This document shows, one piece after another, positions 4,861-30,327 of a DNA stretch of 35,786 nt (positions within the stretch are counted from its first letter, which is position 1; each line of letters begins with the position of its first letter). The notes below the pieces were generated by a model, which had not been told where the DNA came from, ran no database searches, and was given only the letters and a program-made list of their open reading frames with translations. Origin of the DNA: Nemertoderma westbladi. Taxonomy: Eukaryota > Animalia > Xenacoelomorpha. A program made the position numbers and the translations under genes. The DNA is taken from NCBI GenBank assembly GCA_032718475.1, contig JAUCBJ010002477.1, positions 1 through 35,786 on the forward strand. The letters run 5' to 3'.

Positions 4861-5294
4861 TGGTTTAATTAAATCCAATACAGCAATACATACAAATGTA
4901 GGGCCTACATACAACAGTCTGACAGTACAAACCTTGCGCTTGCCCAATAGAACAAAATACTGGAATAACTGAATAAGGCCACATACAGTATGCTGGTTTG
5001 AAGCGTTTCTTCTGCTGTTCTGTTCTGTCCTTACTCTCATCCAACCCATCTGCCCATGCAGACATGTCAGCATGTGACAAAATACTAACAACATACAACG
5101 TAAAAATACATAAAAACTGACATACCAACGTCCAGACGTCTGCACTGCTCCACTGCACGCCAGGCTGCAAACCACCACTGAACCGCGCATAACGCCTGCG
5201 CACAATTTTTCAGCCCCGCAATATTGGACAATATTATCGCGCATGCAGGCATGCACCGAAAAAAAACGCGCACACCACATTTTAACAATGTAAA

Positions 5295-5806: not shown

Positions 5807-6020
5807 TGTAAGTCATAATCAATAGCCTACCGGTGGTCCCTATTGAAAAGTTTTACATCTACGCCGAACCCCGAACACGTTGGGCGCTGCATTACAACAT
5901 GCATTCGGCGCAGACTATCAGACAGTTAGGCTCACATAGGTCTACAGTACTGTATTACAGTATGATGCACATTACGGTAGGCCTACAGAACAGCAGAAGG
6001 CTATGGCTGCAGCATGCAGA

Positions 6021-6295
6021 CACTTTAGTTTGAAACTTTTTTTAGGTTCCTACTTTAGTTTGTAACTTTTTTATGTCCTACTTTAGTTTGAAACTTTTTT
6101 TATTTCCTACTTTAGTTTGAAACTTTTTTTATTTCCTACTTTAGTTTGAAACTTTTTTATTTCCTACTTTAGGCCTAGTTTGAAACTTTTTTATTTCCTA
6201 CTTTAGTTTGAAACTTTTTTTATTTCCTACTTTAGTTTGAAACTTTTTTGCCGTTAAAAAAAATGAAAGTAAATTGGCCTAAACCAGCCACCGTA
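6021..6295. mobile_element. Right end of an IS3EU-like DNA transposon with a subterminal ~29-bp tandem array
   Basis: About 8 copies of CTACTTTAGTTTGAAACTTTTTTTATTTC end in ...CCAGCCACCGTA (6295), which is the reverse complement of the TACGGTGG terminus at 22966. Confidence 0.65.
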
Positions 6296-8189: not shown

Positions 8190-9952
8190 GAGGAGTTATA
8201 TAACTTCCGAAAGGGGGCGATAAAGATATATCAGAAGAGACATATCTTACAGGAGGACTGGATAATGATAGGGTTGGTGAACCTATTTGTGACAGTGGTT
8301 ATCGACAGGGAGCCGACAGTGGTTATCGACAGGGAGCCGACGGTGTTTCTACTGACGGGAGCAGCTCTGAACCACAGGAGAGCCTTTAAGGTAGCCCTAG
8401 AAGGTCTTGAGACCACCCGGGGCAGAAGGGCAAGTTGGTGTATTATGATACCAGGCACCTGGTGGACAGAGAAGTAGACACCGTACAGGTGATGGAAGAA
8501 ATGTGAGGTGGATAGAGGAGGAGGAAAGAAAGCTAGAGGAAGTCGCCAGGAAAGAGAGGAGGGAGGCAGCAGGCAGATATAAGGGGAGGGGAGTATGATT
8601 TTGAAGCCCAAGACTTGGATGAGTTGAGGTGGGGATCAGAGACCTCGGGTGAGTTTCGGCTAGGGGATGAGGTGGATTGGATGGAAGAGACACCGATGCA
8701 TTCTACATCTGGACTGCAGGGAATGCCGATATCTGGGGGGTCCGAGAGTGACTTTGGAAGGAAGAGACCGAGAACGATGGAGGGGTGGAGGGTTACGGGC
8801 GAGTACCAGGCCAGGAAGGGACATGGTGGATCGACCGGGATCCCAGGTTTGGAGCCGCTCGTGGAAGAGGAAATATAGGAGGACGAGTTCGGGGAGATGC
8901 CCGCGATAGAGAGAATCGGCCGGGTGGACACGGACTGGGTGGACGGGAGAGTGGTGACAGCCAGCAGGGCGAGAGCCTTCTGGGACACACCCAGCAAGTG
9001 AGCCTGGGAGCATGGGGAGCCAGCAACGAACTTCCCAGCGAACACGATTCGGCTAGGCGAGCAACCGGGGATGGCGCCACGGGTAGTGTTTGGGGAGACA
9101 ATGCCGAGGGAGGAGGACGACATTGATATGGGTAGGGAGGACAAGGTTGAAATGTTCACTTATCAGCGGCTCCATAGGCCCAGGAGGCTACGCGGAGCCA
9201 AGGACGACTTGGGGCGAGAGACAGTGATAGATGGTTGCGACTACTGTGGGAGACTAACCCATCAGCATAAGAACTGTCTATACCGTTACCAGAAGGGGCG
9301 GCATGTCTTTACTGCTGCGAGTCTATGCATAGGATGGGCGTGTGCCCAAGGTTGCACCACAGGTGTTCGAAGTTTAAGTATAGGGGGCATTTTGAGCGCC
9401 AGTGCGATTGGATGGACAATGAGGAGAAGTTCCGTATTTACGAGGACTGGGCTGGCGTCGGAGTCATGACAAGGCAAAGGATGAAGGCCCAGGAGTTCCG
9501 GTGGGGGTTCTTCAACATCAACCTACAGGTCCACCAGGAGATTACTAAGAGGAGACTACCATTCATGTATCAGGAGGTAGTGATAGCATCATCATATGGA
9601 GGAGTTATTAACACCCAAAGATATCTAGATAGATGGTCACCAGAGAACAGGATGGAATTCAGGAACTTTCTGGTGGAGCATGTGCCGCGTGGGATGAAGA
9701 TGATCTTGTGGGACACTACCAGAGGGAAGCAGGAGGGGCACTCGGTGGGACCACCTGCGAAGCGACACCTTGAATTAATAACGCCCGCACCCAAGGATCC
9801 AACAACAGGGCTCGGCAAGACGGTATCAGCGCGAATGAGTAGCCTCAAGAGCAAACAGGAGGGGAGAAAAAGACCAAGGCAGGACGATGATAGAGGCAAA
9901 GAGATGAGATGGTTTCCAGAGGATACGGGAGGAGCACTCTAGGACTCGAGAA
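8190..9952 (+). pseudogene. LTR-retrotransposon 3' region: possible integrase tail followed by a degraded ORF with three CCHC zinc knuckles
   Basis: 8615-8878 and 9071-9469 are in the same frame across stops, then shift into 9325-9942. Motifs CDYCGRLTHQHKNC, CLYCCESMHRMGVC, CSKFKYRGHFERQC. The segment at ~8198-8265 (YITSERGR*RYIRRDI) weakly resembles a Gypsy integrase C-terminus. A 24-bp tandem duplication lies at ~8291-8338. Confidence 0.55.
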
Positions 9953-10122
9953 CTGATTACGGGCAGTGTTAATGTGCCTGGAAGGCACCGCATGGACATA
10001 TAAGTACAAAATAACTCACAAGTGCAATTATATAAGTGCAATTAGGACGTACGTACATAATCAATCAGTGCTAAAGAAATATAATATACGTAGCATAGTC
10101 AGATATAACCTTTTCCAATTAG

Positions 10123-10740
10123 CTACTGGGACTGGGGACTAATTGACTGTACAGGAGGACGAGACATTGGATGGACCTCACTTCTCAAATGCGAAATGCT
10201 TGTCCAGAAATGCTTCCGAAATGCTTGAAATGCATGTCCAGAAAGGTCATCAGCAAAGGGACTCAAAGAATTGTTGGCTGCTCTCTCTCCAGTAGGGGAT
10301 GAGACAGGCAGCCAGTCAGGAGATAACTGACGCCTGTGAGGCCAATTGTGTCCGGTAATGTCCAGCTTTCGGGGCAAATAACACACCCTGGTTTGCCATT
10401 CCATGGGGTGGCTGTCGCAGTGGAGTCGATATGAGGCCTATCACCCATATCTACTCTGGCGCACATGACCCACCATTGGCTGTGCAGCTCATCTGCTTCG
10501 TCATGCCCTGCACCCCTGCTGCCAGGTGCAGGAGGCAGTGAAGTGCACTCAGAGTGAACATGAGAACATTCTACTCCTGACCAGCCATTGGTATATCACC
10601 ATCTGCCTGGCCAGGCCATATACCCATGCAGCCAAGTATATGGGTCCTTAATCCAGGACCAAGGGCGTCCTTATCCCAGAACGAAGGGGGTCCTAGTTGC
10701 AGGACCAGATTTGCCCTAGTAAGAGGGTCTATGCAGCTAC
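10123..10740 (-). mobile_element. RTE-like LINE 5' UTR and ORF start (copy of the 27.5-28.1 kb element)
   Basis: The reverse complement is highly similar to 27583-28130 and shares the peptide LPVS.PTGERAANNSLSPF.DDL. It is preceded on its own strand by (GTCAG)4 at 10741-10760. Confidence 0.85.
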
Positions 10741-11339
10741 CTGACCTGACCTGACCTGACATGCGATCTATAGGTGCGACCTTGATCCTTACACACGAAC
10801 TTAGAAACTGAAAATTAAAAAACCCCTCCATAACTTTCCCTCAATTAGCATTGATGGACTATAGATTACAGTGAGATGGTACAGGTATATATACTATAGG
10901 CCTACCCTCTACCCTGTAATATAGCTAATTATTTTACAGTATGAATGAAGCCTACAGTATGTACTGTCAGCAGACATTGTGCAGTTCCAGTGTCACAGGG
11001 AAATCTGCCCCCCCCCCCTCCCCTCCCACAAATGCTTCTGGAATGCACAAGTGGGAATGTTAGACCCGACGAAAGTGTGAAGTGAGGATGAAACGGCAAA
11101 CGGGTTGAGTGAGAGAGAAGCATGGGGAGAAGGTGCTAGGATTTGGGAGAAAGTAAGGAGTGCAAGATCCAAGTGTGGGGAGTGAGCAGAGAGAAAGATG
11201 AGTCCTATGGGACTGGTGAGCGAGGAGAACGGATGATAGAGTCTGAGAAAAAATTATGTGCGAAGAGAGGGTGATCGTCTAAATAGAGATGCCAGATGCC
11301 TTGGTACAGCTTAGCTCGCAGATGTACCAAGGATGGGTA

Positions 11340-12118
11340 GTGAAAACAGACCCAGGGGGGCCAGCCTGGAAAGCTGGCCCCGAGAAAAGAATTCCACCCC
11401 ACATCCAATACTAGATTGGATTCCAGTGGAATTGGAGCGCACTAAAGGTTGATGCTATCTTCTCACTGGGAAGATAGCTTGGGGGGGGGGAGTGTTAGCG
11501 GATCAAATTCGCTGCACCACCCAGCGGAAAATGGGGAAAGTGGCTTTTTACCAATTATAGTTGGCTAGGCGACATTACCAATATAATGTCACCTACCAAC
11601 GAACGGAGGCAATATACACTGCCAGCCACAAGGAGAGATGACAGGTTACAAGCCATCTCGTGGTGAGAAAGAAAGCTAGCACGTGCACACAGAGATTAGG
11701 GATTGTCAGAAATAGAATTAGATAAATGTCGAATAGATTAGCCAATGGTGGGGCAGCTTACCATCTGATTAATGCGCATTCATTGGCCAGGCCAAACAGA
11801 AAGTAGCAATATTACATATGTGTTAGTAATTTAACTGTTGTCTTTATTACCTGTCGTTTAGTTGGTTTATACTGAGTGTGGAAGCAAGACAGTTTTGACC
11901 GTCGTCATTAACCATGCTATTATTGTATACTGATTGTGCTATATTGTATTCTGAGATTACGAACAACTGCAACTATAAAACTCAGTTTTTGTTTCGGCCT
12001 CCGGCCTTTCAGATACCACAAGCCTTTCAGCAGCCAGCGGACACGGCGACGCATACATTCCAACACACACACACACACACCAGTCGGGATTCCCTCACCA
12101 ACTCGGGGATCCCGCACA
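11340..12118 (+). mobile_element. LTR retrotransposon 3' end: internal remnant, poly-G PPT and LTR (11493-12118)
   Basis: G10-AG tract, then TGTTAGCGGATC...GGATCCCGCACA (TG..CA with imperfect terminal inverted repeat). Homologous to 23820-24643. May be the true 3' end of the element at 8190-10120. Confidence 0.75.
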
Positions 12119-12383
12119 AGAGTGACATTTTTAGAATTATTTTTGATGGGGGGTAGAGGGGTGGGGGGGGGGGGGGGGTGGGGGGTGCAGTAATAGTAAT
12201 GTTCGAATTCGCGAATTTAACCTCTCAAAATTCGAATTTGAAGTGGAAATCTGAATTTGCAGGGACCTAGAGCAACCCCAACCCCCTTAAATCGTGTTTG
12301 TAAAAAAATTCATATATTTTTAACGGTCGCAGATAACCCGGACTTTACTACATAATGTCTTCGCTTACAGTAGGCCTACTCAC

Positions 12384-12679
12384 TTTATTATAGGATATAT
12401 CAGGGCCGAAGGTAATATATAGCCCATTTTATTTACGGTACAATAAATAGTTATAACTAACTGTGTGAACTTTTTCGTTCTATATACAGATACCATCGTC
12501 TCTATAAGCAAAGCAGCGAGTGGTAGGATAATGAACCAGTAATACCGCGACATTCCGTTATTTCCGTTGGAATCCGCGATATTTGTTGCCAACACATAGA
12601 ACATACATACCAAAGCGTGAATCGCAAACATTAGTCGAGGAAGAATGTCTTTAATTATAGTATTGAATATTACACCCAT
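12384..12679 (-). CDS. TMEM26: TMEM26-like transmembrane protein, first coding exon (or gene fragment)
   Basis: ILPRLMFAIHALV, RYYWFIILPLAALLIET and LPSALIY parallel the TMEM26 N-terminus (TRLLFLLHSLV, RYWLLALLNLLLFLET, SPAIFLY). The apparent stop overlaps a GTGAGT splice donor (12383-12378). No downstream exon was recognised in the window. Confidence 0.65.
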
Positions 12680-13020
12680 ATCGTTAAATCATCCTACAGT
12701 TACTCAATTTCCTTACTGCGTGAAAAGGGATAGTTCTAAATTATGAAAAACACGAGTAAAACAGTAAAACATTACAAAAACATAGGAAAAACACTGTCAA
12801 ACAGCCGGAAAACAGGGAAAATATTAATCCGCAGGAAATTTAACACATGTAATATTCTGAACTGGTAATCCTAAATGTACTCCTCGCACAGAACATCCTA
12901 AGTAACCACCGTATAACATAGGGAGAACACTACAAACCCTCCGGAAAAAACAGTGAAAATATGATCAGCATGAAATGTTGCCTATAATATGCTGCTAAAA
13001 AATAAACTGAAAGAGTCGTA

Positions 13021-14512
13021 TACTACGCAGAAAGCATTGTTGCCATTGCCAGGCGACTGTAACCAATCAACATGCATTCAGTTTGCCATTATAATATGAT
13101 AATCTAATTTACCGACATAACTGACTAATGGGGGCTTGGTATATATATAAAATCTAAGGGTAAGAGCCTAGAGTCTTATACCCCCCAAACTAACAAAAAA
13201 CATAGAATTAGGACATTACGCCCAAAGTAGTACTCAGCCCTAATTAGGGCTGAGTACTACTTTGGGCGTAATGTCTTTGGGCACTTTGTACTTTGGGCAC
13301 CATCAAAAAACAACACAAACAATACAAACAAAAATGACATAAACAAAAAACATATTTATCAAAACATGCTCAACATACAGGTATGTATCGCACCCTAACC
13401 CTAACCTAACCGCCATACACTAAATGATACCGGTAGGATACTGCACAAAAGCTAAGCCTATATTTCTATGTAAAAATATATGACATTTTGTCGCCGTAAA
13501 GGGGTAGGACTAGGGCAAAAATAATTAATTTTATCAAAAATCTGGTTGCGTTTCGGTGTCTGAGACCCAGTACGCGGTAATCTCGACACCTCATCAGCTG
13601 GACAAAGGATTACCCAAGGCTTATCTATATTGCACCAATGACCTAAAGAAATCGCACTATGAACTCTGTTACCGCCTATCCCAAACAGACATCGGACCAA
13701 CAGAACATTGGAACCCTACACAGTAAATAAATTGCAGTGATATCAATGGGAAAATACTGGTAGGTTGCTGGGGCGAACACACAGTATAAAAAATATATTA
13801 GATTTTACAATTTGCAGTGAATGTCGGAATTCTGCTCTACATTCCATAATATGATAATCTAATTTAGCGACATACTGACTAATGGGGGCTTGGTATATAT
13901 ATAAAATCTAAGGGTAAGAAGCCTAGAGTCTTATACCCCCCAAACTAACAAAAAACATAGAATCAGGACATTACGCCCAAAGTAGTACTCAGCCCTAAGG
14001 CCATCAAAAAGCAACACAAACAATACAAACAAAAATGACATAAACAAAAAACAAATATATTAAAACATGCTCAACATACAGGTATGTATCGCACCCTAAC
14101 CCTAACGCTAACCTAACCGCCATACACTAAATAATACCGGTTGCCGGTAGTATACTGCACAAAAGCTAAGCCTACAGTATATTCTATGGAAAAATACAGG
14201 TAGCATTTAGTGTGGCGGTTAGGTTAGGGCTAGGGTGCGATACATACCTGTATGTTGAGCATGTTTTAATATATATGTTTTTTGTTTATGTCATTTTTGT
14301 TTGTATTGTTTGTGTTGTTTTTTGATGGCCTTAGGGCTGAGTACTACTTTGGGCGTAATGTCTTGATTCTATGTTTTTTGTTACTTTGGGGGGTATAAGA
14401 CTCTAGGCTCTTACCCTTAGAGTTTGGCATTATCCTTGTTTTTACCGGTCCGCCGCTAAAGGTGTTGGTTATTGTTTAAAGGTTGCCTGGCAACAATGCT
14501 TCCTGCGTAGTA
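13021..14512. mobile_element. Composite foldback / Helentron-like non-autonomous element
   Basis: Outer inverted repeat TACTACGCAG.AAGCATTGTTGCCA. Inside are three copies of a ~230-350 bp unit containing CCCTAACCCTAACCTAACC: two direct (~13087-13470, ~13840-14190) and one inverted (~14205-14420). Confidence 0.65.
13541..13604 (-). ncRNA. Hammerhead-ribozyme-like core, probably degenerate (Penelope pLTR-like remnant)
   Basis: The minus strand reads CTGATGA-GGTGTC[GAGAT..GTCTC A]GACACC-GAAAC: both catalytic boxes flank a perfect 6-bp extended stem II. Stems I/III and the NUH site are not convincingly intact. Confidence 0.5.
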
Positions 14513-14742
14513 TTACACCTTTGTGTAGTGTTCCTTTGATAGTAAGCTAGAAATGTAGGCCTACTTAATGAGTGGACACCCTTAAATACCTTCTAAAAAA
14601 TCTACGTAATTTAATTTTATAATACTCTGATAAGGTATTTTTATTGAAACTTAATCTCTTTTAAAGTAAACTATGTACATCATTAGTTACCAACACATCA
14701 TTAGATTTTAAATCTGTTTAACATTATTGTTATCATATTTTA

Positions 14743-15025
14743 GCCCATGTGAAGAATACCAGACTTTCTGCCGTTATATTTCACTTTGCAGTTACCCCCA
14801 TGTGAAGAATACCAGGTTTTCACCAAAACCACAGGTTACAGAAGGGTTGAATCTAACCAAAACAATAAACGAATTAGTATATGTACAGGTTATAAGACAG
14901 AAATAAGCGCTATAAAACACTTAATAAAGATAAATTAAAAAAAAATAAAAAATCTTCATATATAAAATTCCAATAAAAAGTCGACCGAAAAGTGAAATTG
15001 AAATCCTGGTATTCTTCACATGGGC
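14743..15025. mobile_element. Small MITE with 20-bp TIRs
   Basis: GCCCATGTGAAGAATACCAG ... CTGGTATTCTTCACATGGGC. The left TIR is duplicated at ~14797. Confidence 0.7.
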
Positions 15026-15539
15026 GCATATTTTTTTAAATATTAAAAATCAAATTGGGTTATTAATACTTATTAAATTCTACTCATTCATTTTTAATTA
15101 ATGGAGGGTTTTAACCATCCGGCCGACAAACCACACTTGACAACACAGGTAGTTGTAAAGACAAGACATTCAATATTACCACAGTTATCCCATCCCCTCT
15201 CTTGTTGTGGACTATTACTATATCATTGTACAAGCTGCGGACCTGCACTCACACCCACCCCCCCCCCCCCCCCCCTCCCCACATCACCCCATTATAATGT
15301 GTTGTAGGTAGACATCCACCCAACCCATTGCGTAACTCAAAATAAACTCCACACAGCCCATACCCGCCCGCCCTTGCTTTTACTACCGCCAAGTGGAGAT
15401 TCAATAAATTGTGGCTGTTTATTTTCTGCTAATCGCGGTGAATTATTATAACCTAGGCGGTCAGGTATAAATAACGGTTACAGATTACAAACCTATGGTA
15501 TATGGACGTGGTGTCCTGTGTGCTCTGCAGACATCCTAC

Positions 15540-18430
15540 AGAGCACATGGAACATTACAAACACAGCTTTTGTTCTAGAATATTAAAAAAAATAAATAAA
15601 CTTATTAGAAATTATTTGTTATGTGTAATCAATTGTTTAATTATCTATAAACATTAATAGACTCTACTGTACTAATTTTCATGCTAGCTAGTGATTTTGC
15701 AAGTTAGCTATTATTAAAATTTTTGTTTTTTCAAAATTATACTTTCCTTTTATATTTCCATTACAACTACAATCTAATTTTAATGTTTATAGATAATTAA
15801 ACAATTTATTACACATAACAAATAATTTCTAATAAATTAATTTTTTTATTAAAAAAAGTTCTAGAACAAAAAGTATTTGTTCTACAACATTTTTTTCACC
15901 AAACTATAGCTAATATGACATAGAACATTATAAAAAAAAGTAGCAAAAACTAACTACTACAAAAAAAAATCCCGGTTATGGGTACACATACCGGTAGGCC
16001 TACAATAGTAGTGCCTGTTACTATGGCAACGTTGAAGAGTTCTATAACAGTAGAAATAGAAAAGTACTAATATATAAATAGAAAAGTAAATAGAAATATA
16101 CTATTCTAGAACATAATGAATTACGAAAATATAGGGCCTAATGTTCTAGAACATATAGCTAGTTTTTTTATTTTAAAATAGGTAGTAAATTTTTAAAAAA
16201 ATTTATTTTTAAATAAATTTCTGCATAGATATAAATCAATATTGATTATAGAGTTTTTGTATATAATTTTTTGAATACCGGTATATTTTTATACCGGTAA
16301 TACCCGTTTATTTTTTTATAGTTCCGTATGCAGTCGCATTTTTAAAACATTGTTACCAGGGCAACAATGTAGAGTTCTAGAACAAAATATAATTATTATG
16401 CACTAAAACTAAAACATAAATAAAATAAAAAATATAGGCCTAATGTTCTACAACAGATAGCTAGTAATTAAAAAGAAACTACATTTTTTATAACATAAAT
16501 CATTGTTACCATGCAAAAAATGTAAACTGCTACAGTATACCATCATTTAATACCTATAATGCCATCAATATTTTTGGTCATTAATATATTCTGCTACAGT
16601 TTAAACCTGAAATATCAGTACTGGTCCAGTATGCGTACACCCCCCACCAAATTTTTGTACTAGCTAGTTTTTGATAATTTCTTTTTTTTAATGTACCAAA
16701 ACATGTTAGCTACTTGATTTTGAAAAAAATAATGTTCTAGATCAAATATTCTTTGTTCTAGAACATTTATAAGACAAAAGCCTGGTTTGTATTTAAAAAG
16801 CATGGGATTGAAAAAGCAAGGAGGTAAAATATATTTTTTTAATATTTTGAAATTTTTCAATTAAATTATTATGTTAGCCAGTAAAGTTACTGGTAGCTAA
16901 TAATTAATAAACGAAACGATAAAAGCAATTTACACAATAAAAAATGTGGTCAATATTTTTTCAAATTTTCAATTTTTATTTTTTCACTACCGGTAGCTAA
17001 TATAAAGTTCTAGCTAACACAAAATCAAAATTACAAGCTATAGGAACTACCATCTTAGTGTCAGAAGGTCAAATGATGAAAGCTGATGATAAAAGCCATG
17101 AAAAACTCGGTCAAAACTGTGGCAACCTAATACATAAAAATTTGAGACACATAGGGCCTATGGTAATTGTACCCCACATCGATTTCTACGTACAAAGTGA
17201 CACAAGTGTATAGGACTAGCTAGTTTTTATAAAAGATAATAATGTTTCCAGAGAATTATTAAAAATTATAAATACTGTTAATATAACGAACTCATAAGAT
17301 TTTAATCCAAACCTTGTTTTTTTCTAAAAAGATGTTCCAGAATGTAAATATTTGTTCTAGAACATTATTTTTTATAAACAAAAACAGTAGCTAACATGTT
17401 CTAGAACATTTAAAAAAAATGAATTATCAAAAACTAGCTAGTACAACAAATTTGATGGGTGGTGTAAGCCTAGTGGACCAGTACCGAATTACAGTACAAA
17501 AGATACTAGCTAGTAAAAAACACTAGCTACCATAAAAAAACATAGCTACTAATGATGTTCTAGAACACAAAAAAATGCAGTATTTTTAGACGTTTAAAAA
17601 AAATGTTGGGCCTAATATATAATAAATCATGTATCAAAAAATTAAAAAAAATAACTAGCTAATGAACTTGAACTTGAACTTGTTTATTAGCGGATTACAA
17701 AGTAAAATAAATACAAATCACTACAGTTAGGTATATGGCTTGTACAACTACAGTTATAGTCATTAATACCTATAATACCATCAATATTTTTGGTCATTAA
17801 TATATTCTGCTACAGTTTAAACCTGAAATATCGGTACTTAGCTAATCAATTAGCTAATGTTCTAGAACACAATATATATTTTTTAAATGTTGCAATGAAG
17901 TGTGCAAAAAGTACATAATTTCATTAATTAATATCAAAATATCAAATGCCACCGCATAACATTTAGTACCCCATTTTTCTGTCAGAAGGCCAAATATTTG
18001 TTCTAGAACAAAAAACGTCATAATATAAGACATTTTCACAAGAAAAAGTTGGTCAAATTTTTCAATTATGGTTTTTTTCACAAGCTAATAAAAAGTGGGC
18101 CTACTAGCTATCACAAAATCACAATTACTATCTACCATCTTACTGTCAGAAGGTCAAATATTTGTTCTAGAGCAAAAACCCTCATGATAAAAGCTATTTA
18201 AGTAAATAAATAATAAATAAATAAAATAATAAATATTTAAATAAAAGCTATTTTCATATGAAAAATTCGGTGAAAAAGTGGGTACCCATAACATAGTAAT
18301 ACCGCAAAATCTAGCTTAAATTGAAAAAGATTTGGAGGGGGTTGTACGCATACTGCACTAGTGCCCTAGAAAATAAGTAGCAAAATAAATTGTTCTAGAA
18401 CAAAGAAAATATGTCGAACAGTAATTTGTT
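15540..18430. repeat. Scrambled Merlin-TIR-derived repeat field (GTTCTAGAAC / TAGCTA units in both orientations)
   Basis: Many degenerate copies of the arm sequence of the 6296-8189 element, including a complete right terminus AAAAGTGGGTACCCATAACATAGTAATACC ending at 18303. There is also a direct duplication, ~16545-16621 / ~17761-17838. Confidence 0.7.
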
Positions 18431-18765
18431 TTTAGTGAATAGCTAACATTTTCAAATTAAAGTTGCAAAATAATTTAATACTTGGGAAAAAAAGTATAAG
18501 TTCGAGAATGGTGAGAGTCAAGAGCATTTTGAAAAAGTCTACCTTTTTATCCCACGTACAGTATAGGGCCTAATTTATGAAGTATGAATAGCTACGCAAT
18601 AGATATATTGGATAAGAATACCGCTGTTGCCAACCAACTTATAAAGTCCATAGTGTATTATTATTAAAGTATTATTATAAAAGGAATTAAAATTAATATA
18701 AACACCCAAGAGTTGCATATTTCTAGTAGTCACGGCTGAATGAATAGAGTTTGTAAAGTGTACAT

Positions 18766-18882
18766 CTAATATTCCTCCTCTCCCTCCTCATCTTCGGCTC
18801 CACCACTATCAACTCCAACCTCCTCGTAATCCTTCTCCAGAGCAGCGAGATCCTCACGAGCATCGCTGAATTCTCCCTCTTC
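18766..18882 (-). pseudogene. TUBA: Alpha-tubulin C-terminal fragment (last 38 codons plus stop), followed by probable 3' UTR to ~18655
   Basis: Translates [38 protein letters not shown], the diagnostic alpha-tubulin helix 12 and acidic tail ending EEY. Not in the ORF track; no upstream tubulin sequence is present. Confidence 0.95.
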
Positions 18883-19320
18883 TAACGCACCGCCCAAATA
18901 CCTGCGCCATCGTCAAGCCCTATTGGCCGCCACGACATCCGCCCACCCCTCAAACAAAGACCCACTGCCCGGACCAAGGCGATAGAAAGCCGCGCCCTCA
19001 CCCACCCCAATACCGAACCACTAGGCTTCTCCTTCCACCCCTACATACAGGAGAGGTGTGTCGCAAGGTGGTGCAGGAAGTGGGAGGCTTCCTTCCCCCA
19101 GACTCCGTCAGCAGTGACCGCGAGCGGAGTGAAGGTGAGTCGAAGCTGCTCAGAGATTTGGCAGAGGTGGTGCTTCTTCGAACTCACCTTCGTCCGCAAT
19201 ATATTGTCCGTGGAGCGGTTGCGGTAGGAGGGAGCGTCAGCGTTTACAACGCATATGTCAAACGACGCCTCCCTCTGCGGCTCCCACACACCACGGACAA
19301 CTAGGCCAGTTCTGACCCCT
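18882..19320 (-). mobile_element. 5'-truncated CRE-clade non-LTR retrotransposon, restriction-like endonuclease C-terminus
   Basis: One frame with a single internal stop (19041-19043): VRTGLVVRGVWEPQREASFDICVVNADAPSY...FTPLAVTADGVWGKEA...[41 protein letters not shown]. This is the typical CRE RLE domain and terminal motif. Confidence 0.85.
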
Positions 19321-19789
19321 GCCTAATTTATGTAATTTTATTCTTAAATTGGTAAGCCGACTTTTTTTCTGCTTGATTCTTTAAGAAAAATTTTGAAGAA
19401 CTAAATTGAACTGTAACTGTGGTATTTTACTATATTACTTTCATCTATAGTTACAACGATTCCAATTAACTCAATGTTACATAATGAATATTGGATATTG
19501 GGTTCCGTTTTGGTGTAGGCCGTGCCGACGCTAAAGTTGTCATAAATTTTATGATAGGATTTTGATCTAATTCTGGGTTTTAACTTATCAAGGAAGAACT
19601 AAGAGTATGCTCGGTCAATTCCAAACTACAGTAGTAGCTAGTACTGTACCGTTTTGGAGTTCGCCTTGCAGACACTAGTAAAGTAGCAATAACTTTTGAG
19701 TGAGTGAATGGATTTTGTTCAAATTAAGTGCAAACCTTTTCTACGTTGCTCTCTCAATATATGTAATAAAATTTATGAAATTCCACCAA

Positions 19790-20045
19790 AAATATTTTAC
19801 TTTACTTTTTTCGCCGGGAAAAAAAGTAAAATCAATGCAATCCTATTGATTACTTTTTACCCAAGGGAAAAAAAGTGAAACTTTTTCTCCCGATTTTGAG
19901 GTATATTCGAGCGAAAAAGTATTTTATAAAAATATTTTATTTTACTTTTTTTTCGCCGGAAAAAAGTTGTGGGCGCTCTTATTTTACCAAGGTAAAAAAG
20001 TGGAACTTTTTCTCCCGATTTTAGGGTATATTCGACGAGCGAGTA
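19790..20045. repeat. Two tandem ~130-bp repeats, likely subterminal repeats of a DNA transposon
   Basis: TTTTTCGCCGG.AAAAAAGT...CAAGG.AAAAAAGTG.AACTTTTTCTCCCGATTTT...GGTATATTCGA occurs twice. Confidence 0.65.
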
Positions 20046-20264
20046 ACAACTAATATAAGAACTAATATTAAAGACTTTTTGTGGAATATAACAGGTACCT
20101 CTCCCCACACGCCCCCCCCCCCCCCCCCAAACAAGGTGTCGAACTAAGAACTATCCTCAGTAAATTTCGCAATTGATTGAAAACAATTGGGGGGGGGGCT
20201 CCGACCTGCTAAAGAAGTTTGTTGTATTAAGGTCTTAATTTTAGGTAGAGATTCATACATAAAC

Positions 20265-20960
20265 AATAACTATTTACATCATTGTGTGCAAAGTAGCACT
20301 TTGCAGCGTTATGACCCGAGTTTATTTATGTACCGAGCGAGCGCAGCGAGGGAGGTTTACATAAATAAACAAGGGTCTTTAACGCTGAAAAGTGCTACTT
20401 TGCAAGCAATGGCGTATGCCATTTTGTTACATTTTGTCAACTTATCAGCGTTCGGTATGTGAAGAAAGGATTTCATGAATACTTATTTGTACATTTTAAT
20501 CTGTACTATATCGAATATAAGTTAAATTTATTAACAGGTACACAGTATTAATTATACATTTAAATCTAATTAAAGTTTATTGGAAGTTATCTCCTGCATG
20601 GATGTGATAAATCATTAATCCATCTTGACTATAGTCGACTGAAGCAAACTGTCGACTGTCGCCATTTTCTTTGCTCATTTTAGTGTCTTCTATTGGACGT
20701 TTCGCCATAATGGATTACAGAACACATTAAACAATTATTTACATACAGTAGCTAGTCCCGTCACTGCAAACTGGATAATAAGGCAGCACGCATTAATATA
20801 AATGGAAATAATACATTCTGGAATACGGTAATTGAAGTTGTTTCCGAGTTATTGATTACTTTGCAGCGTTCCGTCCTATAAGCCGCAACGCTGCAAAGTA
20901 GTACTTTGCAGCGTTGCGATTAATTCACTAGAACGCTGATAAGTTGACATAATGTAACAA
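20265..20960. mobile_element. Non-autonomous element with palindromic arm and inner inverted repeats (possibly Crypton-like)
   Basis: Starts AATAACTATTTACAT, with a self-complementary arm around GAGCGAGCGCAGCGAG. Inner IR 20424-20453 / 20931-20960. An inverted copy of the arm lies at 33069-33170. Superfamily assignment is tentative. Confidence 0.6.
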
Positions 20961-21502
20961 TATGTTCTATTGTAAATATAGTTTATTTATTTATTAGAAT
21001 ATATTAGAATAAATGGCCTGCAGCGGGAGCAATCACACGAAACGTTCGAACGTCCTCAGCTATTCACATTTTGTTACATTATATGGAATCCTTGCACGGC
21101 CGGTTTTCTAACAATATTAAGGTTGAACTATAATTTAACTATAAGGTTGAATAATAACTGCAGTACGGCTGGTGCAATATCGTCGGATACACCTTTTTCA
21201 AACGCTTGTACTGTTGTAGCTAAATAATGAAAGCGAAAATAAAAATGTAATTTTTGAGATATTTAAACCTCGTAACATTATTCGGAATAACAAATGTGCA
21301 GAAATAATTGCACTTTAAAATATCAAGGATTACAATGTAGGGCCTACCGCAAGTACCGGTATACAAAAGCGTAGAAATAAGTCTGTGGAATAAACCTTAT
21401 GGTTGGCAGCTGTGCACAGTGAACAAGTAGGTTTCTACAAATATTGTATTAATTAATTAATAAAAGCAAAATAATGAATTAATTAATTAATAAAAGCTGC
21501 AT

Positions 21503-22102
21503 CTACATTTTTTTATCGTAAACTTCGAATGTATATTTAACTCCGTTATCCTCATGAACCTCTCTCTCCACATCAGTCGGGCCTTCCGTTTCGGGAGGAC
21601 GTAGATTATACGAGTTGATATCGAACTCCGGGAAGAAAGTATCGCAGGGAAACTCGGAGAGAACTCGAGTTATATGTAACCGATAGCAGGAAGGATGACA
21701 CAAAGCCGACTCGAATACTCTCCTTCCGCCGATAACAAATAGGTTCCCTATATCGAGACGACCTGACAACGAACTAACAGCCTCTCCGAGCGAGCCGAAT
21801 AACTCGTGAGCTCCGGTAGGGGGCGCTGTTAGTGTCGTACTTAGAACCACATTGTGCCGATGACGTAACGGTCTATGAGCTTCCGGTATAGAGAACCAGG
21901 TTTTTCTGCCCATTATAACGGCGTTGATTTTGCCTTCGTTCTCGACTCGCGAAGTTTCTCGTTCGAACATTCTCATATCGGCGCGCAGACGAGGCCAGGG
22001 GAGGCGGCCCTGGTAACCGATTCCGTTGCTAGGGGTTATTGCTACTATAAGCCGAAGAGGGCGGGTTGCCATGGTAACAGTATCACCTGATAGCACACTC
22101 AT
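21503..22102 (-). CDS. DHFR: Dihydrofolate reductase (eukaryotic type, intronless CDS)
   Basis: LIVA..NGIGYQGRLPWP, AVIMGRKTWFSIP..RPL..R.NVVLS, FVIGG, CDTFFPEF, GVKYTFEVY; full-length and uninterrupted. An alternative start is at MATRPL. Confidence 0.96.
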   Translation of the reverse strand: MSVLSGDTVTMATRPLRLIVAITPSNGIGYQGRLPWPRLRADMRMFERETSRVENEGKINAVIMGRKTWFSIPEAHRPLRHRHNVVLSTTLTAPPTGAHELFGSLGEAVSSLSGRLDIGNLFVIGGRRVFESALCHPSCYRLHITRVLSEFPCDTFFPEFDINSYNLRPPETEGPTDVEREVHEDNGVKYTFEVYDKKM

Positions 22103-23594
22103 TATATAACATCAATCTGCCAGTACCGGTACTGCAGTAATTACTGTAGAATAAGTAGACAGTGACAGAGCAATACAAAAAGGGTAGAGCATGGTAATCT
22201 AATAGCTACCAGGCTACTGCAGGTCTCACTCTCAAGGTCTATACTTACTTATACTGCAATAATTAATCTACCTTAAATAAACTAAAAAACATTAGCTGAG
22301 ATTTTGAGACAATTTAGCCACATACAGCGCTGCCAGGCAACATACAGTAGATCTGTGAATGGTAATTGGCAACTCAGATATTGTCCGAAAACTTTTGAAT
22401 AAGCCTACACAAGTGACGTGTAGTACATATTTAAAAGCCTACGCGTAGGTCGAAAAGATTTACCCCTATAATTCAACTTCACTCCACTCACTCAGATAAT
22501 AATTACCTAGCAGCATAGCGGTACTATACACTGTAGGGTAGCTAGCTATTTAATGGCCAGTGCGTTGTGTAGGCCTATGTATGATGTATTGTCTCGGTAC
22601 TTTCAGACTGTATAATCTGAGAAAACACCAGTACACAGCAGCACAGCTGCACAGACTACAGAGACTGGAGACAAGCCGACCGTGACTGTGGACTGTTCAT
22701 TTCCGTGAATTGACTCTTGCCAGACGACAGCCTGCCACTGTCAGACAGTGCCACAGCCAGCCACTGCCAGCAGAGCAAAATGTTCTTATGGCAGTGTATG
22801 GAGATCTGGAGATAGGCCTACGCCTACTGGCTGACTGGACGTACATGTTTGAATTTCCCTCTCATTTCAACATTTAAATACTAACTTATGGGATTATCAC
22901 TTGATTTTTGTTCTTTTGTTGAATGAGGAGTCTTAACGGCTTACGAATAATATTAACGTGGATACTACGGTGGTGAGTTGCGGCCAATTATTGAATTTTT
23001 TTTAAACGTTTAAAAAAAATTATTTAAGTTTGTAAAAAAAATTAATGTTTTGCTAAAAAAAATTAATGTTTTGCTAAAAAAAATTAATGTTTTGCTAAAA
23101 AAAATTAATGTTTTGCTAAAAAAAGTTAATGTTTTGTTAAAAAAATTAATGTTTTGCTAAAAAAAAATTAATGTTTTTTAAAGTATAATTTGAATTTCCG
23201 GCTTTCTTCTGGCTTGTTGAAGTGAAGACAGAAGGCCTATCGAAAGATTTTCACTTTCAGTCTTCCCTTCAGTCTGTGTTGTATTATAATATTAGCTGTA
23301 GGTAGATACCGGTACGGTTGGTATGTGTAGGGAAGGGAAGAAAGGCCTATTATCATATTGGCCTATACAAACCTGACACCAACTACAGGCAACAGCAAGA
23401 GTCTTTCACTGATGCTAACCGTACTGTGGATGAGGGTGTGTTTAGTGTAACGCAGTAAAGTAAAGTAGTGCACTACATACATACATGCTGTACAGTATAT
23501 GTACAGTACTTTAAGTGCAGTATCAGTACATATATACTGTATAATCAATAGCAATAGAGCCTACACGTATGTTATTGTAGTATTGGGTGGCGTC

Positions 23595-23735
23595 ATGGAT
23601 AATGAGCGATGGCGGCTTTATACTGCCTTACGGCATGAACTAAACAATCTTATTTCCGATACAGAAAGACCAACCAGCGACGACCAAAGAACCAACGACG
23701 GGGCTTAGCAAGACGGTATTGTGTGGAGAGTGAGT
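23595..23735 (+). pseudogene. N-terminal remnant of a second ORF inside the IS3EU element
   Basis: MDNERWRLYTALRHELNNLISDTER...; convergent with the transposase remnant and cut off by the LTR-element sequence. Confidence 0.35.
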
Positions 23736-23819
23736 ACAATGGTCTCAAACAGAGACACCAGATACCTAGGTGCAACATAGCTCGCGATTGCACCAAGGAT
23801 GGGTAGTAATAACACACCC

Positions 23820-24643
23820 AGGGGGGGGGGGGGGTCTGGAAAGCCGACCCCGAGAAAAGAACTCCACCCCACGCCCAATATTAGATTGGGTTCCAGCGGA
23901 ATTGAAGCGCACTTAAGGTTGATGCTATCTTCTCAACGGGAAGATAGCATGGGGGGGGGGGGGGGTGTAAGCGGATTCAATTCCCTTCTTTCTCCACCCT
24001 AAAATGGGACCAGTGGCATTTTACCAATATAGTTGGCGATGCGAGATAACCAATAAATAATCTCGCCTTATAACCAACTTAGGGGGGGGGGGGGGGGGGG
24101 CGACACCCGCCCTAAGCCACAGAGAGAGGTGAGAGGTCAAACCACCTCAGAGGGGAAACCCAGGAAGCGAGGCTAGCATCAGGGAGTAACACTTACAGGG
24201 AGTGCCGAAGTGACAATTAGTATATAAGACAATAGAGGGCAGGGAAGCGCGTGAGGAAGGATAGAAGGGCATCCATTGGGTATCAAAGGCCACAGTAATG
24301 TAGAAGTGAAACCAATATGTATCAATCATATATTTACTCTGATTACTGATTTACTGGTCAGTTCATTATTACGCAGTTGCGGACCGGCATAGTTTTGACC
24401 GTCATTTTATAGTCTTTGTAACTTATACTGTACTACTATACCGCTGCTGTTGTCATTTGTGTTTCAATCTATATTATTTCATATTCAACTGTGCTGTTAC
24501 TACTGGAATCATTAACACTGAGAAACACAAACTCTGTTACTTTCCCAACGGCCTTCGGCCAAAGATACCAGCCCAGCAGACCAGCAGCTAAGTGACGCGT
24601 ACAGTCTTACCCGGTCGGGATCATAGAACTCAATCCCGTCACA
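23820..24643 (+). mobile_element. LTR retrotransposon 3' end: internal remnant, poly-G PPT and LTR (23966-24643)
   Basis: G15, then TGTAAGCGGATT...AATCCCGTCACA; homologous to 11340-12118. Confidence 0.75.
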
Positions 24644-24819
24644 CACTAACTATTTCGGGTTACCGTTCGATTTGAAACCTCCTTTGAAAGCAATTCCATA
24701 TCGCCCAATCGTCGACGAATTGTTCGTATATCCTCAAAGTGCTCTTCACGCAGTAAGCAAGAGATTTCCTTGTATGTAAATCCCTTCTTAAAGTATTCTA
24801 GCAACACGCGGTTGTCCAT
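24644..24819 (-). pseudogene. IS3EU transposase N-terminal HTH remnant
   Basis: MDNRVLLEYFKKGFTYKEISCLLREEHFEDIRTIRRRLGDMEL resembles the YF..G.TYKEI...RT.RRRL HTH that precedes eukaryotic IS3-like integrase cores. Truncated at the LTR end. Confidence 0.65.
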
Positions 24820-26056
24820 GTCCGTACGAAATAATTAAGCGGATAGCTTACCGGTATGGCGTACAATAAGACTACCGTCTAATCGTATTGCACACCATTA
24901 ACAACCAAGAATGAAGTACCTAAGCCTACTGTATGTAGGCCTACTTAGCAAAACATTGATTTTTTTTCTCAAAACATTAATTTTTTTTATCAAAACATTA
25001 ATTTTTTTTTAACAAAACATTAATTTTTTTTAGCAAAATATTAATTTTTTTTAGCAAAACATTATTTTTTTTTATCAAAACATTAATTTTTTTTATCAAA
25101 ACATTATTTTTTTTAACAAAACATTAATTTTTTTTTAGCAAAACATTAATTTTTTTTACAAACTTAAATAACTTTTTTTAAACGTTAAAAAAAAATGCAA
25201 TAATTGGCCGCAACTCACCACCGCAGGATACAAATTCCTGAGTTAATATCTTCTCATTTGTACTTGTAAGCCAACGCAATGTCTTGAAAGATTGTGGGTT
25301 GTGACTTTCGACTGTAGAAACCAGTCTAGTCAATTAGATTTGTGCTCCCGAAAGTTGTACAGTCTTTCGAACGAGTTTGCAAGCAGTCTCATTGGAAGCA
25401 CTTTCAATCATTTGTGACGAAATTTTGGTATGATGATAGTTCGACAACTTCTCTTACTGCTGGCAGAGCCGGATTTTTCAATTTCTGAACTATTTCGATA
25501 CAACAGTCCGTTTTAATTAATATACAGTAGTCTTGTTGTATTAAGGGAGGTGGTGCAGGGCCTATTTAATAAAACGTAGAATGAAATTAAGTTATGAACA
25601 GTTTACTATTGATTGTCCTTCTTTAGAATTATATTAAGTCAGATTATAATTATAAGTTATGCACAGTTTACTATTTTTAATATTCATTCTTCACCACTTC
25701 TATCAAGTTAGTGAAGGGCAAATTTTTATGGAGTTGCCTCCATCTAAATTCTGCAAGATGGTTGTCCTGAAGTTTTTTTGTCGTACAGTACCTTTCCGTT
25801 TCCGCATAATCATTTGCTTGGCGTTAAATACAGTATAAAAAAAAAATTTGTTCTAGAACATTTTTTTGGGAAAAATTTAAATAGTACAGGAATCACCCTA
25901 CAACCTTTATTAAAAAAAAATAGTAACTTCAAATGATTAGTCCTCTTAGTAACTACAGTACCTTTAATCTAGAACATATAACACACTGATACACAATTGT
26001 GTTTGATGTTCTAAGAAGGTTAGGCTAAATATGAATAATAATTCATTTAGCTATAC

Positions 26057-27163: not shown

Positions 27164-29051
27164 AATAACTATTTACATACTTGCGTGTAAAGTTGCTGTA
27201 CTTACAGTGTAAACTGTAAGTGTAAACTTACGTGTAAACTTACAGTGTAATGATCCGAGTGGCTTTGTTACACGAACGAACATTATTAGTGAGTGAGTGA
27301 AAATAAAGCCACGAGGGTCAGAACACTGTAAAGTACTTTGCAACAAGTACCGGTATGTATGTAGTTTTTTTTCCAAAATTTTAACATTACGAAATGATTG
27401 TGCAAATACATTATAAGTGATAGAAACTGCACAAATTATATTATGTAGGTAGCGTGGTAGCGTTTGGAGCCATGTTATAATAATATAGCTAGGCCCTACT
27501 GGTTATTTGGTAAGGTCAGGTATTCTAGGTCTTTGATCAAGAAAACTTGCCACCTCCATGCAGCATAAAGGAGGTGCCACCTGTAGCTGCATAGACCCTC
27601 TTACTAGGGCAAATCTGGTCCTGTAACTAGGACCCCCTTCGTTCTGGGATAAGGACGCCCTTGGTCCTGGATTAAGGACCCATATACTTGGCTGCAGGGG
27701 TATATGGCCTGACCAGGCAGATGGTGATCTACCAATGGCTGGTCAGGAGTAGAGTGTTCTCATGTCCACTCTGAGAGCACTTCACTGCGACCTGCACCTG
27801 GCAGCAAGGGTACAGGGCATGACCCAGCAGATGAGCTGCAACAGCCAATGGTGGATCATGTGTGCCAGAGTAGATATGGGTGATGGGCCTCATATCTGAC
27901 TCCATTGCGACACCCACCCTGTGGAATGGCAAACCAGGGTGTGGTATTTGCCACGAGAGCTGACTCGGCAAAAAAGCACCCCCCAACCCCCACTATGGAT
28001 TACATTAGCAATGCGGAGGTCCGGCCACTAGAGGCCAGTGGAATTACTGACCGGCTGCCTGTCTCACCCCCTACTGGAGAGAGAGCAGCCAACAATTCTT
28101 TGAGTCCCTTTCCTGATGACCTTCCTGGCCCAAACCCTGGGTCACCAGGAAGGCCAGATTGTGATGGGGAGAGGGATTCTGGAGTTGGAGGCTACTCTCA
28201 TGTTCCACCCCGACCAACAAAGCCATTGGTGAATCTGAGGCAAGTCACAAGACTAGCCTCAGTAAACACCCTAACACTCGGGTCCCCAATGCGACAAGGT
28301 GAGCTGACTGCCTTGGCAGATAAGCTTTCTCTTAGTGCAGTGGGTGTTCCAGAGCACCGAATGCAGACTGGACAGACTGATGAGGTTCTGATTAAAGACA
28401 TGGGGGGCGGTTGGCGACTCGCCCTTGCGTCAGCAGATGATAGTGGCAATGGTGGAATTGGTCTATTGATGAATCCAACTGCACATGCAGCATTGGACAA
28501 AATAGACCAAATATCTAACCGCATCATCCGTTGCCACTTCTCATGTTCTGGAAGACTGGCTAAGAAGTTTCCTAAGGTGGTTCTGATTGTGTGCTACTCT
28601 CCAACTACTGTAGTGTTGCCCCTGTAGAGGAGGTGGAAAATTTCTACCACAATCTACAAGCAGCTACTGATGGAGTGGATCAGCATGCCTTCTTAACATT
28701 CCTGGGAGACTTTAATGCAAGTCTGCATCAATCACCTACATTGCCCTGGGTCTATAGCAATAGTGTTAACTGTTAAATTGTTAACTGTTAGTGTTAAATT
28801 TCCACCTATTGTTTACGTGGTATCCAATGATGGCGTTAAGTAATGTCCCCCTGTGGACATTTTTGCTTTGCTTTTTTGTTAACGGCATTGAGTAATGTTA
28901 CAATTTTGGAATAAAGTACTACAGGATACAGTGTTCTGATCCTCGTGGCTTTATTTTCACTCACTCACTAACGTTCGTTCGTGTAACAAAGCTACTCGGA
29001 TCATCACACTGTAAAGTGCTACTTTAACACACAAGTATGTAAATAGTTATT
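27164..29051. mobile_element. Non-autonomous TIR element related to 20265-20960, interrupted by a LINE
   Basis: TIR AATAACTATTTACATACTTG.GTGT / ACAC.CAAGTATGTAAATAGTTATT with ~130-170 bp matching arms, plus inner IR TTCCAAAATT.TAACATTAC. Confidence 0.75.
27509..28760 (+). mobile_element. RTE-like LINE: 5' UTR plus AP-endonuclease domain, truncated before RT
   Basis: RLASVNTLTL, VGVPEHR, GNGGIGLLM, ISNRII, IVCYSPT, (frameshift) EEVENFYHNLQ, LGDFNA. Single-ORF layout with APE at the N-terminus. Confidence 0.88.
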
Positions 29052-29112
29052 TTACAAATATGTTACACAGTTAGTAGTGTTTCTACATATTAAATAAAAA
29101 ATAAATTACACG

Positions 29113-30327
29113 ATGAAATCAATTCGAAATGTTCTCAAGCATATTTCTTCTCATCCTGCGAATTCCAACAACAGTGAGAGAGTAACTAGACCAAAAACAC
29201 CAGAAGGTTTGCCAGTAGCCATAACTGATGACTTCGAGGTAGAAACACTTCTAGGCACTGGTCTGAGTGCTTGCGTATATTACGTTCGTCACAAAAGCGA
29301 TAACAAATACTATGCCTTAAAAGTTGTCTCGAAATCTCCATCTAGCCCGCAGACCAAAAGGATCACTAATAATGTCAAACTCAAAAAGGCATGCTTTGCT
29401 GAGAAAGATGCCTTGAATGCTATTGATCATCCCTTCATTGTAAAATTGCATTATGCTTTTCAAAGTGATACGAAAGTTTTCCTCGTTCTAACTTATGCTG
29501 CTGGCGGTGATATTTATGGGAATCTAAAAAAGGCAGGAAATCTTTTCGTCGAAGGGAGAGCGAGATTCTACGCGGCCGAGGTGGCTTGTGCTCTTGGATA
29601 TCTCCACGAAAAGGGAATTATATATCGAGATTTAAAAACGGAGAACGTGTTTTTAGATGCCGAAGGTCACGTTTTATTAGGCGATTTTGGTTTCTCCAAG
29701 ATGGGGTTGGAACCCGGCCAGCGGACGCAATCCTACGGTGGCACGGCCGCGTTCATGTGCCCGAATCGAGTGCGACACGTGGAATACGGCGTTGCTTCTG
29801 ACTGGTGGTCTTTGGGTATCTTTATATTCCAGATGCTGAGCGGGACTACCCCCTTCGTATGGGGACCTCATTATGTAAAGGGTGAGCGTGAGGGTGTCGA
29901 ACGTCTCTCGCCCCGGTCCATACGCAACGCAATCTGTTTTAGTGAACCGGAAATGAGCCGACTTCCAGATCATACATCACTTGAAGCCAAACATATTATT
30001 AAACAATTGTTAATAAAAGAAGAGAAAGAAAGATTAGGTAGAGCAAACGGCGTTAAGGATATCAAGAGTCAAAAGTTCTTTGATGGTTTAAATTTCGATG
30101 CTCTTGAACAAAGAGAAGTCACACCACCATTTAAACCCGATATTAAGAGTAACAAAAATAAGTTTAAGTACTTCGATGAAGCTCTCGACGTTAGAGACAG
30201 AAGTGGATGGCTGAAAACAAAAAAGGTACCTCACTGCAACGTTCTAGATGACAACGAAGATGAAAGAAGCGAGATATTTCAAGGGCTCGATTACACGAGG
30301 CCGTCATCATCAGGAAGTGCTCAGTGA
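29113..30327 (+). CDS. AGC-family Ser/Thr protein kinase (S6K/RSK/SGK-like), intronless and divergent
   Basis: LGTG, YALKVV, EKDAL..IDHPFIVKLHYAFQ, GIIYRDLKTEN, DFGFSK, DWWSLG, ERLG, VTPPFKP and YFDE, plus a C-terminal hydrophobic-motif-like FQGLDY; 404 aa uninterrupted. Confidence 0.93.
   Translation: MKSIRNVLKHISSHPANSNNSERVTRPKTPEGLPVAITDDFEVETLLGTGLSACVYYVRHKSDNKYYALKVVSKSPSSPQTKRITNNVKLKKACFAEKDALNAIDHPFIVKLHYAFQSDTKVFLVLTYAAGGDIYGNLKKAGNLFVEGRARFYAAEVACALGYLHEKGIIYRDLKTENVFLDAEGHVLLGDFGFSKMGLEPGQRTQSYGGTAAFMCPNRVRHVEYGVASDWWSLGIFIFQMLSGTTPFVWGPHYVKGEREGVERLSPRSIRNAICFSEPEMSRLPDHTSLEAKHIIKQLLIKEEKERLGRANGVKDIKSQKFFDGLNFDALEQREVTPPFKPDIKSNKNKFKYFDEALDVRDRSGWLKTKKVPHCNVLDDNEDERSEIFQGLDYTRPSSSGSAQ

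Follow-up and report, generated by a model that had tools for sequence, protein, structure and literature searches.

Features of the locus

The window analysed here is the whole 35,786-nucleotide contig JAUCBJ010002477.1 of Nemertoderma westbladi (assembly GCA_032718475.1). Its minus strand carries the 3' end of a non-LTR retrotransposon (one lacking long terminal repeats) with a putative restriction-like endonuclease (RLE), which is joined at its very stop codon to the last codons of an alpha-tubulin gene. An original prediction, made from the letters of the window, had described the arrangement as a CRE-clade retrotransposon fused to the 3' end of alpha-tubulin, and as a candidate for an element that targets tubulin genes or carries a tubulin tail. 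The locus is made up of the following features, in which ORF stands for open reading frame and UTR for untranslated region.

19321..19332, minus strand: probable target-site duplication, a direct repeat of 12 bp at the 5' junction; the final 2 bases are compatible with the frame of the element as well
18885..19320, minus strand: 5'-truncated RLE end of a non-LTR retrotransposon ORF, complete at the C-terminus; 59% GC, internal stop at 19043-19041
18882..18884, minus strand: stop codon TAG of the element, sharing its G with tubulin codon 414; junction common to nearly all copies of the family
18766..18882, minus strand: alpha-tubulin codons 414-451 and stop, from the frame and a protein match
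18657..18765, minus strand: tail resembling a tubulin 3' UTR, AT-rich (25% GC), with AATAATAAT at its end, from base composition and a contig match
18582..18645, no strand assigned: 64-bp internal piece of a repeat with very many copies, lying within the duplicated block, from self-comparison and depth
18568..18579, minus strand: the 12-bp direct repeat again, closing the insertion on its 3' side, from a repeat search

The junction and the anatomy of the window copy

The reading frame of the RLE runs on the minus strand from 19322 to 18885 (438 bp, the last 146 codons of the ORF) and is closed by TAG (18884-18882), whose last base, the G at 18882, is also the first base of alpha-tubulin codon 414. 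From this G a second frame, EEGEF...EEEY*, continues to 18766 and corresponds to alpha-tubulin residues 414-451 (best E-value 1.5e-10). The reading frames therefore confirm the predicted fusion of the ORF stop to tubulin codons, and a six-frame motif scan of the window found no other tubulin motif, in agreement with the earlier statement that the neighbourhood is otherwise free of tubulin sequence. The prediction had also seen target-like sequence in the last bases of the element, which read YLGGAL in the tubulin frame where tubulin has YVGEGM. The likeness is present, with 10-12 of the last 20 bases identical to upstream tubulin by hand count, but it is weak (p 0.005-0.10, uncorrected for the choice of window), and it fits microhomology at a single capture as well as an older captured piece of the target. 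Removal of the element by splicing, with its final AG as acceptor, is unlikely; the sequence upstream is G-rich and has no pyrimidine tract.

At the other end of the copy, the GC-rich stretch (59% GC, versus 33% in the 5' flank) begins sharply at 19320. The 12-mer that borders it occurs exactly twice in the window, at 18568-18579 and 19321-19332, and cannot be extended. A repeat of such length at the 5' junction was obtained in 5 of 5000 Markov resamples and in none of 1366 real 400-nt windows elsewhere. Because it is so rare in both, the repeat is probably a target-site duplication bracketing a 741-bp insert, and it combines with the sharp truncation at 19320 into the signature of target-primed reverse transcription. 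The possible duplication that had been noted at both ends thus keeps its coordinates, and the repeat and the resampling likewise support the earlier view of a 5'-truncated copy with a transduced tubulin tail between duplications. The single internal stop in the element frame (19043-19041) is absent from every contig aligned there.

The AT-rich, UTR-like stretch that had been described is present after tubulin. Its terminal AATAATAAT (18665-18657) is not the end of the insert, as had been supposed, because about 80 bp separate it from the duplication. A motif scan of the tail found no AATAAA, ATTAAA or poly(A). Between the tail and the duplication, 18582-18643 is 87% identical to 33232-33172, in line with the resemblance of 18580-18645 to a second site in the window that had been pointed out before.

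Copy number of the junction

Contigs of four public runs from the same organism (X1-X4; at most three samples and three studies) were placed on the region. Region-wide statements hold among the contigs listed, which amount to 32 of 1765 and 32 of 302 pieces and to 24 of 391 and 24 of 44 loose ends. Depths are not exact copy numbers, and the contigs of a graph end wherever its paths join or part. Both outer junctions of the window copy are found at single-copy depth, in X1 (30 and 30.1), X2 (29.4 and 37.3) and X3 (12.1 and 15.8). The element body has a depth of 111-123 in X1, 260.5-289 in X2 and 179.1-194.2 in X3. Contigs spanning the junction with tubulin reach 287.5 in X2 (18874-18945) and 180.3 in X3 (18853-18945), which corresponds to a junction-to-body ratio of 0.93-1.10 and to 7.7-9.8 times (X2) and 11.4-14.9 times (X3) the depth of the unique window flanks. 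These deep bridges hold just 9 (X2) and 30 (X3) tubulin bases. The body ratio is lower in X1 (about 4), with a single low-depth bridging piece among the pieces listed.

Nearly all copies of the young family end at the same tubulin base. In X2 and X3 the 3' junction is fixed to one site across copies, as is characteristic of a site-specific element; older, diverged fragments differ in this respect. Most copies reach farther 5' than the window copy: the depth is 105-123 to 19305, and an X2 contig with a loose end at 19298 stays in frame.

Run X4 is labelled 'DNA?', but is probably RNA, since its tubulin depth exceeds 500,000 and the unique flanks are uncovered. At the end of the element it has a contig of depth 9.67 (about 18888-18946) that does not reach the junction and is uninformative on expression. 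The tail at 18708-18785 differs from a very deep X4 contig by 3 substitutions and 1 gap in 78 mostly untranslated bases, and with about 95% identity over this length it is young.

The repeat that contains 18582-18643 has a summed depth of about 6,000-24,000 in the DNA-like runs. Joints in X2-X4 connect the left flank (18492-18499) with the right flank (19332-19337) in other repeat copies, which fits an insertion into a repeat. As evidence of an empty site these joints carry little weight, with sides of only 18-24 bases, a spacer of 33 versus 91 bases, and 2 matches of the spacer motif versus 1.97 expected.

A second junction at 18861

Another multicopy junction, 21 bp downstream of the main one, is present at 18861 in X1, X2 and X3 (X3 depth 134.7). 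Here GC-rich non-tubulin sequence is joined to a different alpha-tubulin tail, with 7 differences in 99 bases from that of the window. By a hand reading of the 30-base consensus, this sequence also ends in TA followed by a tubulin G, and in the corresponding frame it is weakly similar to the last motif of the family (4.7 bits versus 12-20 for true homologues; p 0.014-0.052). The junction possibly belongs to a second RLE family.

Identity of the element and its relatives

Over 97-99% of its length the window peptide can be aligned with the C-terminal ends of three proteins that bear a reverse transcriptase, P0002-P0004 (E-values 1e-47 to 2e-22; 3 matches among 738 candidates). A further protein search gave 10 matches, and relatives of P0002 number 5344 at an E-value of at most 0.001. 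The relatives P0002-P0011 and L001-L003, which come from Vitrella brassicaformis, Selenidium and metagenomes, share 41-59% identity with the window peptide. A tree was built of 63 rows, namely the 60 best proteins covering the RLE region, which are unnamed or come from Vitrella or Selenidium, and three loci. It places the window element in a clade with the Vitrella-like elements (support 99/99), and beside P0002 with weak support. Relatives were found in 3 of 265 metagenome candidates, in none of 126 candidates from prokaryote genomes and at no locus in three scans of viral contigs; the element-tubulin junction pattern was not found in the viral contigs either. An animal element nests among Vitrella-like (alveolate) and metagenome elements. 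With sampling thin and the region short, horizontal transfer is no more than a possibility.

Upstream of the RLE the relatives carry a CCHC knuckle (CDGCG...HAL.C). Pfam gave no match for the RLE, and a comparison with the PDB returned one remote match only, to R2 (E-value 0.54). We class the element as RLE-type, with a PD-(D/E)xK-like endonuclease behind a CCHC knuckle, a label that is taken from motifs and architecture. The reverse transcriptase (RT) domain has been truncated away in the window copy; RVT_1 is found in the relatives P0004, P0012 and P0013 and in 48% of a related Atlas cluster. We take the RT motifs of the relatives to be CRE-like, and the element may belong to the CRE clade, as originally predicted. 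A probable target-site duplication, which is a trait of that clade, is present in the window copy, and the 3' flank is alpha-tubulin, not the spliced-leader genes that most described CRE elements target.

An (E/D)DGAG-like motif is located at most 14 residues from the end in 64 of 162 sequences, followed by 2-12 residues. In the window it is followed by 5 residues, and the ORF is therefore complete at the C-terminus, with its stop at the usual place of the family. All three related metagenome loci (45-52% identity to P0002) have 135-290 bases of 3' sequence of their own, one ending in (TTCA)n and none with tubulin. The claim that the window element lacks a 3' UTR of its own is borne out, as the ORF is complete, tubulin follows directly at the stop and 3 of 3 relatives do have a UTR. 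No structured RNA was detected in place of the 3' UTR (z 0.68; no Rfam match), and Rfam gave no match in the window.

Among 35 homologous C-termini, P0002 is the only one that fits the shifted tubulin frame at the first three positions (4 of 6 overall). Shared ancestry would explain this fit equally well, and we regard it as a lead only. The P0002 contig may likewise be linked to tubulin, given its C-terminal fit. In the metagenome locus L003, positions 1-150 are an inverted copy of its own element sequence at the start of the contig, probably an assembly fold-back.

Other features of the window

Three single-exon housekeeping-type genes lie within 13 kb: an intronless dihydrofolate reductase ORF (21503-22111, minus strand; Pfam DHFR_1), an intronless protein kinase ORF (29098-30327, plus strand) and an intronless ANKRD49-like ankyrin ORF (33975-34739, minus strand). 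The best named matches of the last are from molluscs and echinoderms (about 45-51% identity), which indicates that the host is an animal. A HECT-domain fragment with broken upstream frames is located at 2742-4868 (minus strand), and presumably resembles the G2E3-like repeats of marine animals.

Several repeats were observed. The 5' part of what we take to be a long interspersed nuclear element (LINE), with an AP-endonuclease-like start, is present twice in inverted orientation, at 27583-28627 and 10238-10740, the two copies being 95% alike. Long inverted repeats of 21-bp units or nested arms, resembling foldback elements or miniature inverted-repeat transposable elements (MITEs), are found at 22959-25232 and 13149-14425. 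Zinc-knuckle ORFs and transposase-like fragments occur at 643-1470, 9002-9942, 6746-7270 and 31346-31603, and we presume the transposase-like fragments to be of the ISXO2 type and of Tc1/mariner.

Insertion preference or captured tail

The window copy itself very probably arose from an RNA that extended from the element through the tubulin tail; its reverse transcription would have taken place at a site outside tubulin, stopped early and left the 12-bp duplication. This step would be common to the two readings that we consider most seriously. The one we prefer, and to which we would give an even chance of being right, is that the family inserts preferentially at codon 414 of multicopy alpha-tubulin genes, and that the window copy is an off-target insertion carrying a tubulin tail. 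We favour such a site preference because a single account then covers the exactness of the junction, the lack of a UTR, the youth of the tail and the existence of a second junction. Source copies would reside in tubulin genes, where the G of the target completes the stop codon of the element. Their transcripts would read through the tubulin tail and end in or past the tubulin UTR. At a tubulin gene the tail of the RNA could then anneal to the nicked target, so that reverse transcription would be primed right at the junction and the tail would substitute for a 3' UTR. At other nicks the whole RNA end would be copied, giving dispersed, truncated, tubulin-tailed copies with a duplication, such as the window copy.

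The equal depth of junction and element body speaks for this preference, as do two further observations on the contigs. The X3 junction contig ends exactly 30 bases into tubulin (18853), as would be expected of a break in a 31-mer graph if another path, e.g. an intact gene, shared the sequence. Intact tubulin of the HWYVGEGM type leaves the stretch at 18882 in one contig each of X1 and X2 and in nine of X4. A wider claim may be put forward more tentatively, at somewhat less than an even chance: a lineage of RLE elements, comprising at least two families 21 bp apart, would target alpha-tubulin coding sequence and would have given up its own 3' UTR, the stop being completed by the first base of the target and the tubulin tail serving as terminator and as priming homology.

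Several observations weigh against an insertion preference for tubulin genes. Among the loose ends listed (24 of 44), no 5' junction with upstream tubulin was seen. Of the three loose ends listed inside the element, two (X3 18900 and X1 18985) enter AT-rich non-tubulin DNA and the third is element-like; such ends are not assignable to particular copies. Among the pieces listed for X1, none crosses the junction at high depth, and a near-exact match over 31 bases to both sides is found in none of the bridging contigs listed (30 and 63 in X3). A base change at 18873, which alters a conserved tubulin glutamate, is found in about 36% of the X2 junction depth (104.3 of 287.5) and is absent from X1 and X3, and such a shared change suggests that the tails were copied along with the element. 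The tail of the second junction forms one unbroken 99-base contig, and for this reason no intact gene seems to share it; it would be private to those copies. A diverged single-copy fragment (X1, X2 and X3) ends at 18888 and continues into non-tubulin DNA, and the three related metagenome loci keep a 3' UTR of their own without tubulin.

These points are in part also what speaks for the second reading, a real possibility that we rate below those above: one ancestral copy would have landed in an alpha-tubulin gene or mRNA, or switched template to one. Its 3' UTR would have been lost at the stop and the tubulin end retained as a permanent tail, and the family would then have spread to unrelated sites without a preference for tubulin. 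Capture is in line with the only fully seen copy being both dispersed and tailed, with the tubulin-altering change common to about a third of the X2 junction depth, with the non-tubulin 5' flanks of the truncation points seen and with the retention of a UTR in the relatives. The 10-12 of 20 matching bases ahead of the junction could be the microhomology involved, and fish R2 elements set a precedent for target-derived 3' sequence within elements (PMC5035012). Capture requires, however, that the UTR was lost exactly at the stop codon with mobility kept, and it does not predict a second multicopy junction 21 bp off on a different tubulin tail. The tail is moreover near to current tubulin, yet an older-looking, diverged copy (15 differences in 120 bases; X2 record 13) already aligns 5 bases past the junction, in one low-depth contig.

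Amplification at the DNA level seems improbable. In that case a single chimera would have increased in number through duplication of a tubulin locus, segmental or tandem, or through a DNA transposon, and no special retrotransposition habit would be involved. The copies are indeed near-identical (unbranched contigs of 140-150 bases at a depth of 111-260), and the window is rich in inverted and dispersed repeats, with a repeat fragment inside the insert itself. The sharp 5' truncation and the 12-bp duplication of the window copy mark reverse transcription instead, and other copies reach farther 5'. The original prediction had named as its alternative a one-off template-switch chimera, in which case the tubulin junction would occur only once; such an event, or an assembly artefact, is hardly credible. 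That the depths give no exact copy number and that the private bases of the window copy are unseen in the aligned contigs would suit it. Nevertheless, the junction is multicopy, is common to nearly all copies of the young family and reaches the depth of the body in X2 and X3, which are samples of two different studies, and because of this equality the one-off chimera falls. The presence of both outer junctions of the window copy at single-copy depth in three runs also speaks against this reading.

Comparison with known retrotransposons

If the preference for codon 414 is real, an RLE homing to a conserved protein-coding site would extend the idea of a 'safe multicopy target' to essential gene families, and would provide a nuclease whose natural specificity is new. 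Whether target homology alone can prime insertion, a live question in R2-based genome writing, would also be put to a direct test by an RLE family moving without a 3' UTR of its own. Should the tail have been captured, the case would still be unusual, in that the 3' end of a retrotransposon family was replaced by the tail of a host mRNA.

In L1 3' transduction and in chimeric retrocopies, a single event takes downstream host sequence along and places it elsewhere, flanked by duplications. The window copy is alike in that a host tail was moved between duplications, and differs in that its junction is fixed across the family. Histone genes are the target of some Tx1 families, which have an apurinic/apyrimidinic (APE-type) endonuclease.

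No element that targets tubulin or is tailed by it was found in the literature searched, as far as its text was available; neither Repbase nor the tables of targets in Fell et al. 2025 are covered by that search, and a prior record is possible there. As described in PMC13580325, the survey of RLE elements by Fell et al. 2025 included CRE. A term count in PMC13708176 gave 0 mentions of tubulin. The targets listed in PMC4640811, PMC8869645, PMC3636483 and PMC4494074 are the genes of rRNA, tRNA, small nuclear RNA (snRNA) and the spliced leader, besides other transposons, microsatellites and the repeats of telomeres, and include no protein-coding exon. Four of the five RLE clades are mostly target-specific (PMC4640811).

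The element shares target-site duplications with CRE1, SLACS, CZAR and the related MoTeR of the CRE clade (PMC3636483), and, to judge from its relatives, it would also share their single ORF with RT followed by RLE; unlike them, it has neither a spliced-leader nor a telomeric target. With the RT-RLE elements of Vitrella brassicaformis, Selenidium and metagenomes it has in common the C-terminal (E/D)DGAG motif and the 99/99 clade, whereas the three loci of that group that can be read as DNA keep their own 3' UTR and have no tubulin.

Parallels in way of life are found in Utopia and R2. Utopia (NeSL clade, RLE) is likewise joined precisely at its 3' end to the downstream half of a multicopy gene that is conserved, that of U2 snRNA. 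Its copy number is low as well, and copies truncated at the 5' end do not necessarily adjoin the target (PMC4640811). In the same text, Utopia families are called U2-specific on account of just such a fixed 3' flank, and some 5'-truncated copies are not flanked by U2. In Utopia a 3' UTR adjoins the U2 fragment, whereas here the stop codon itself overlaps the target and the target is protein-coding; this comparison is one of features, not of sequence. As in R2, including the fish elements R2Gs and R2Bs with their 28S-like 3' UTR (PMC5035012), co-transcription with the target is a likely route and the 3' end is derived from the target; R2 differs in targeting ribosomal DNA and in keeping a 3' UTR, and the sequence similarity to it is remote, consisting of the one PDB match. 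The system works like Utopia or R2, with an RLE tied to one site of a conserved multicopy gene, and differs from both in that this site is protein-coding and that the element has no 3' UTR of its own.
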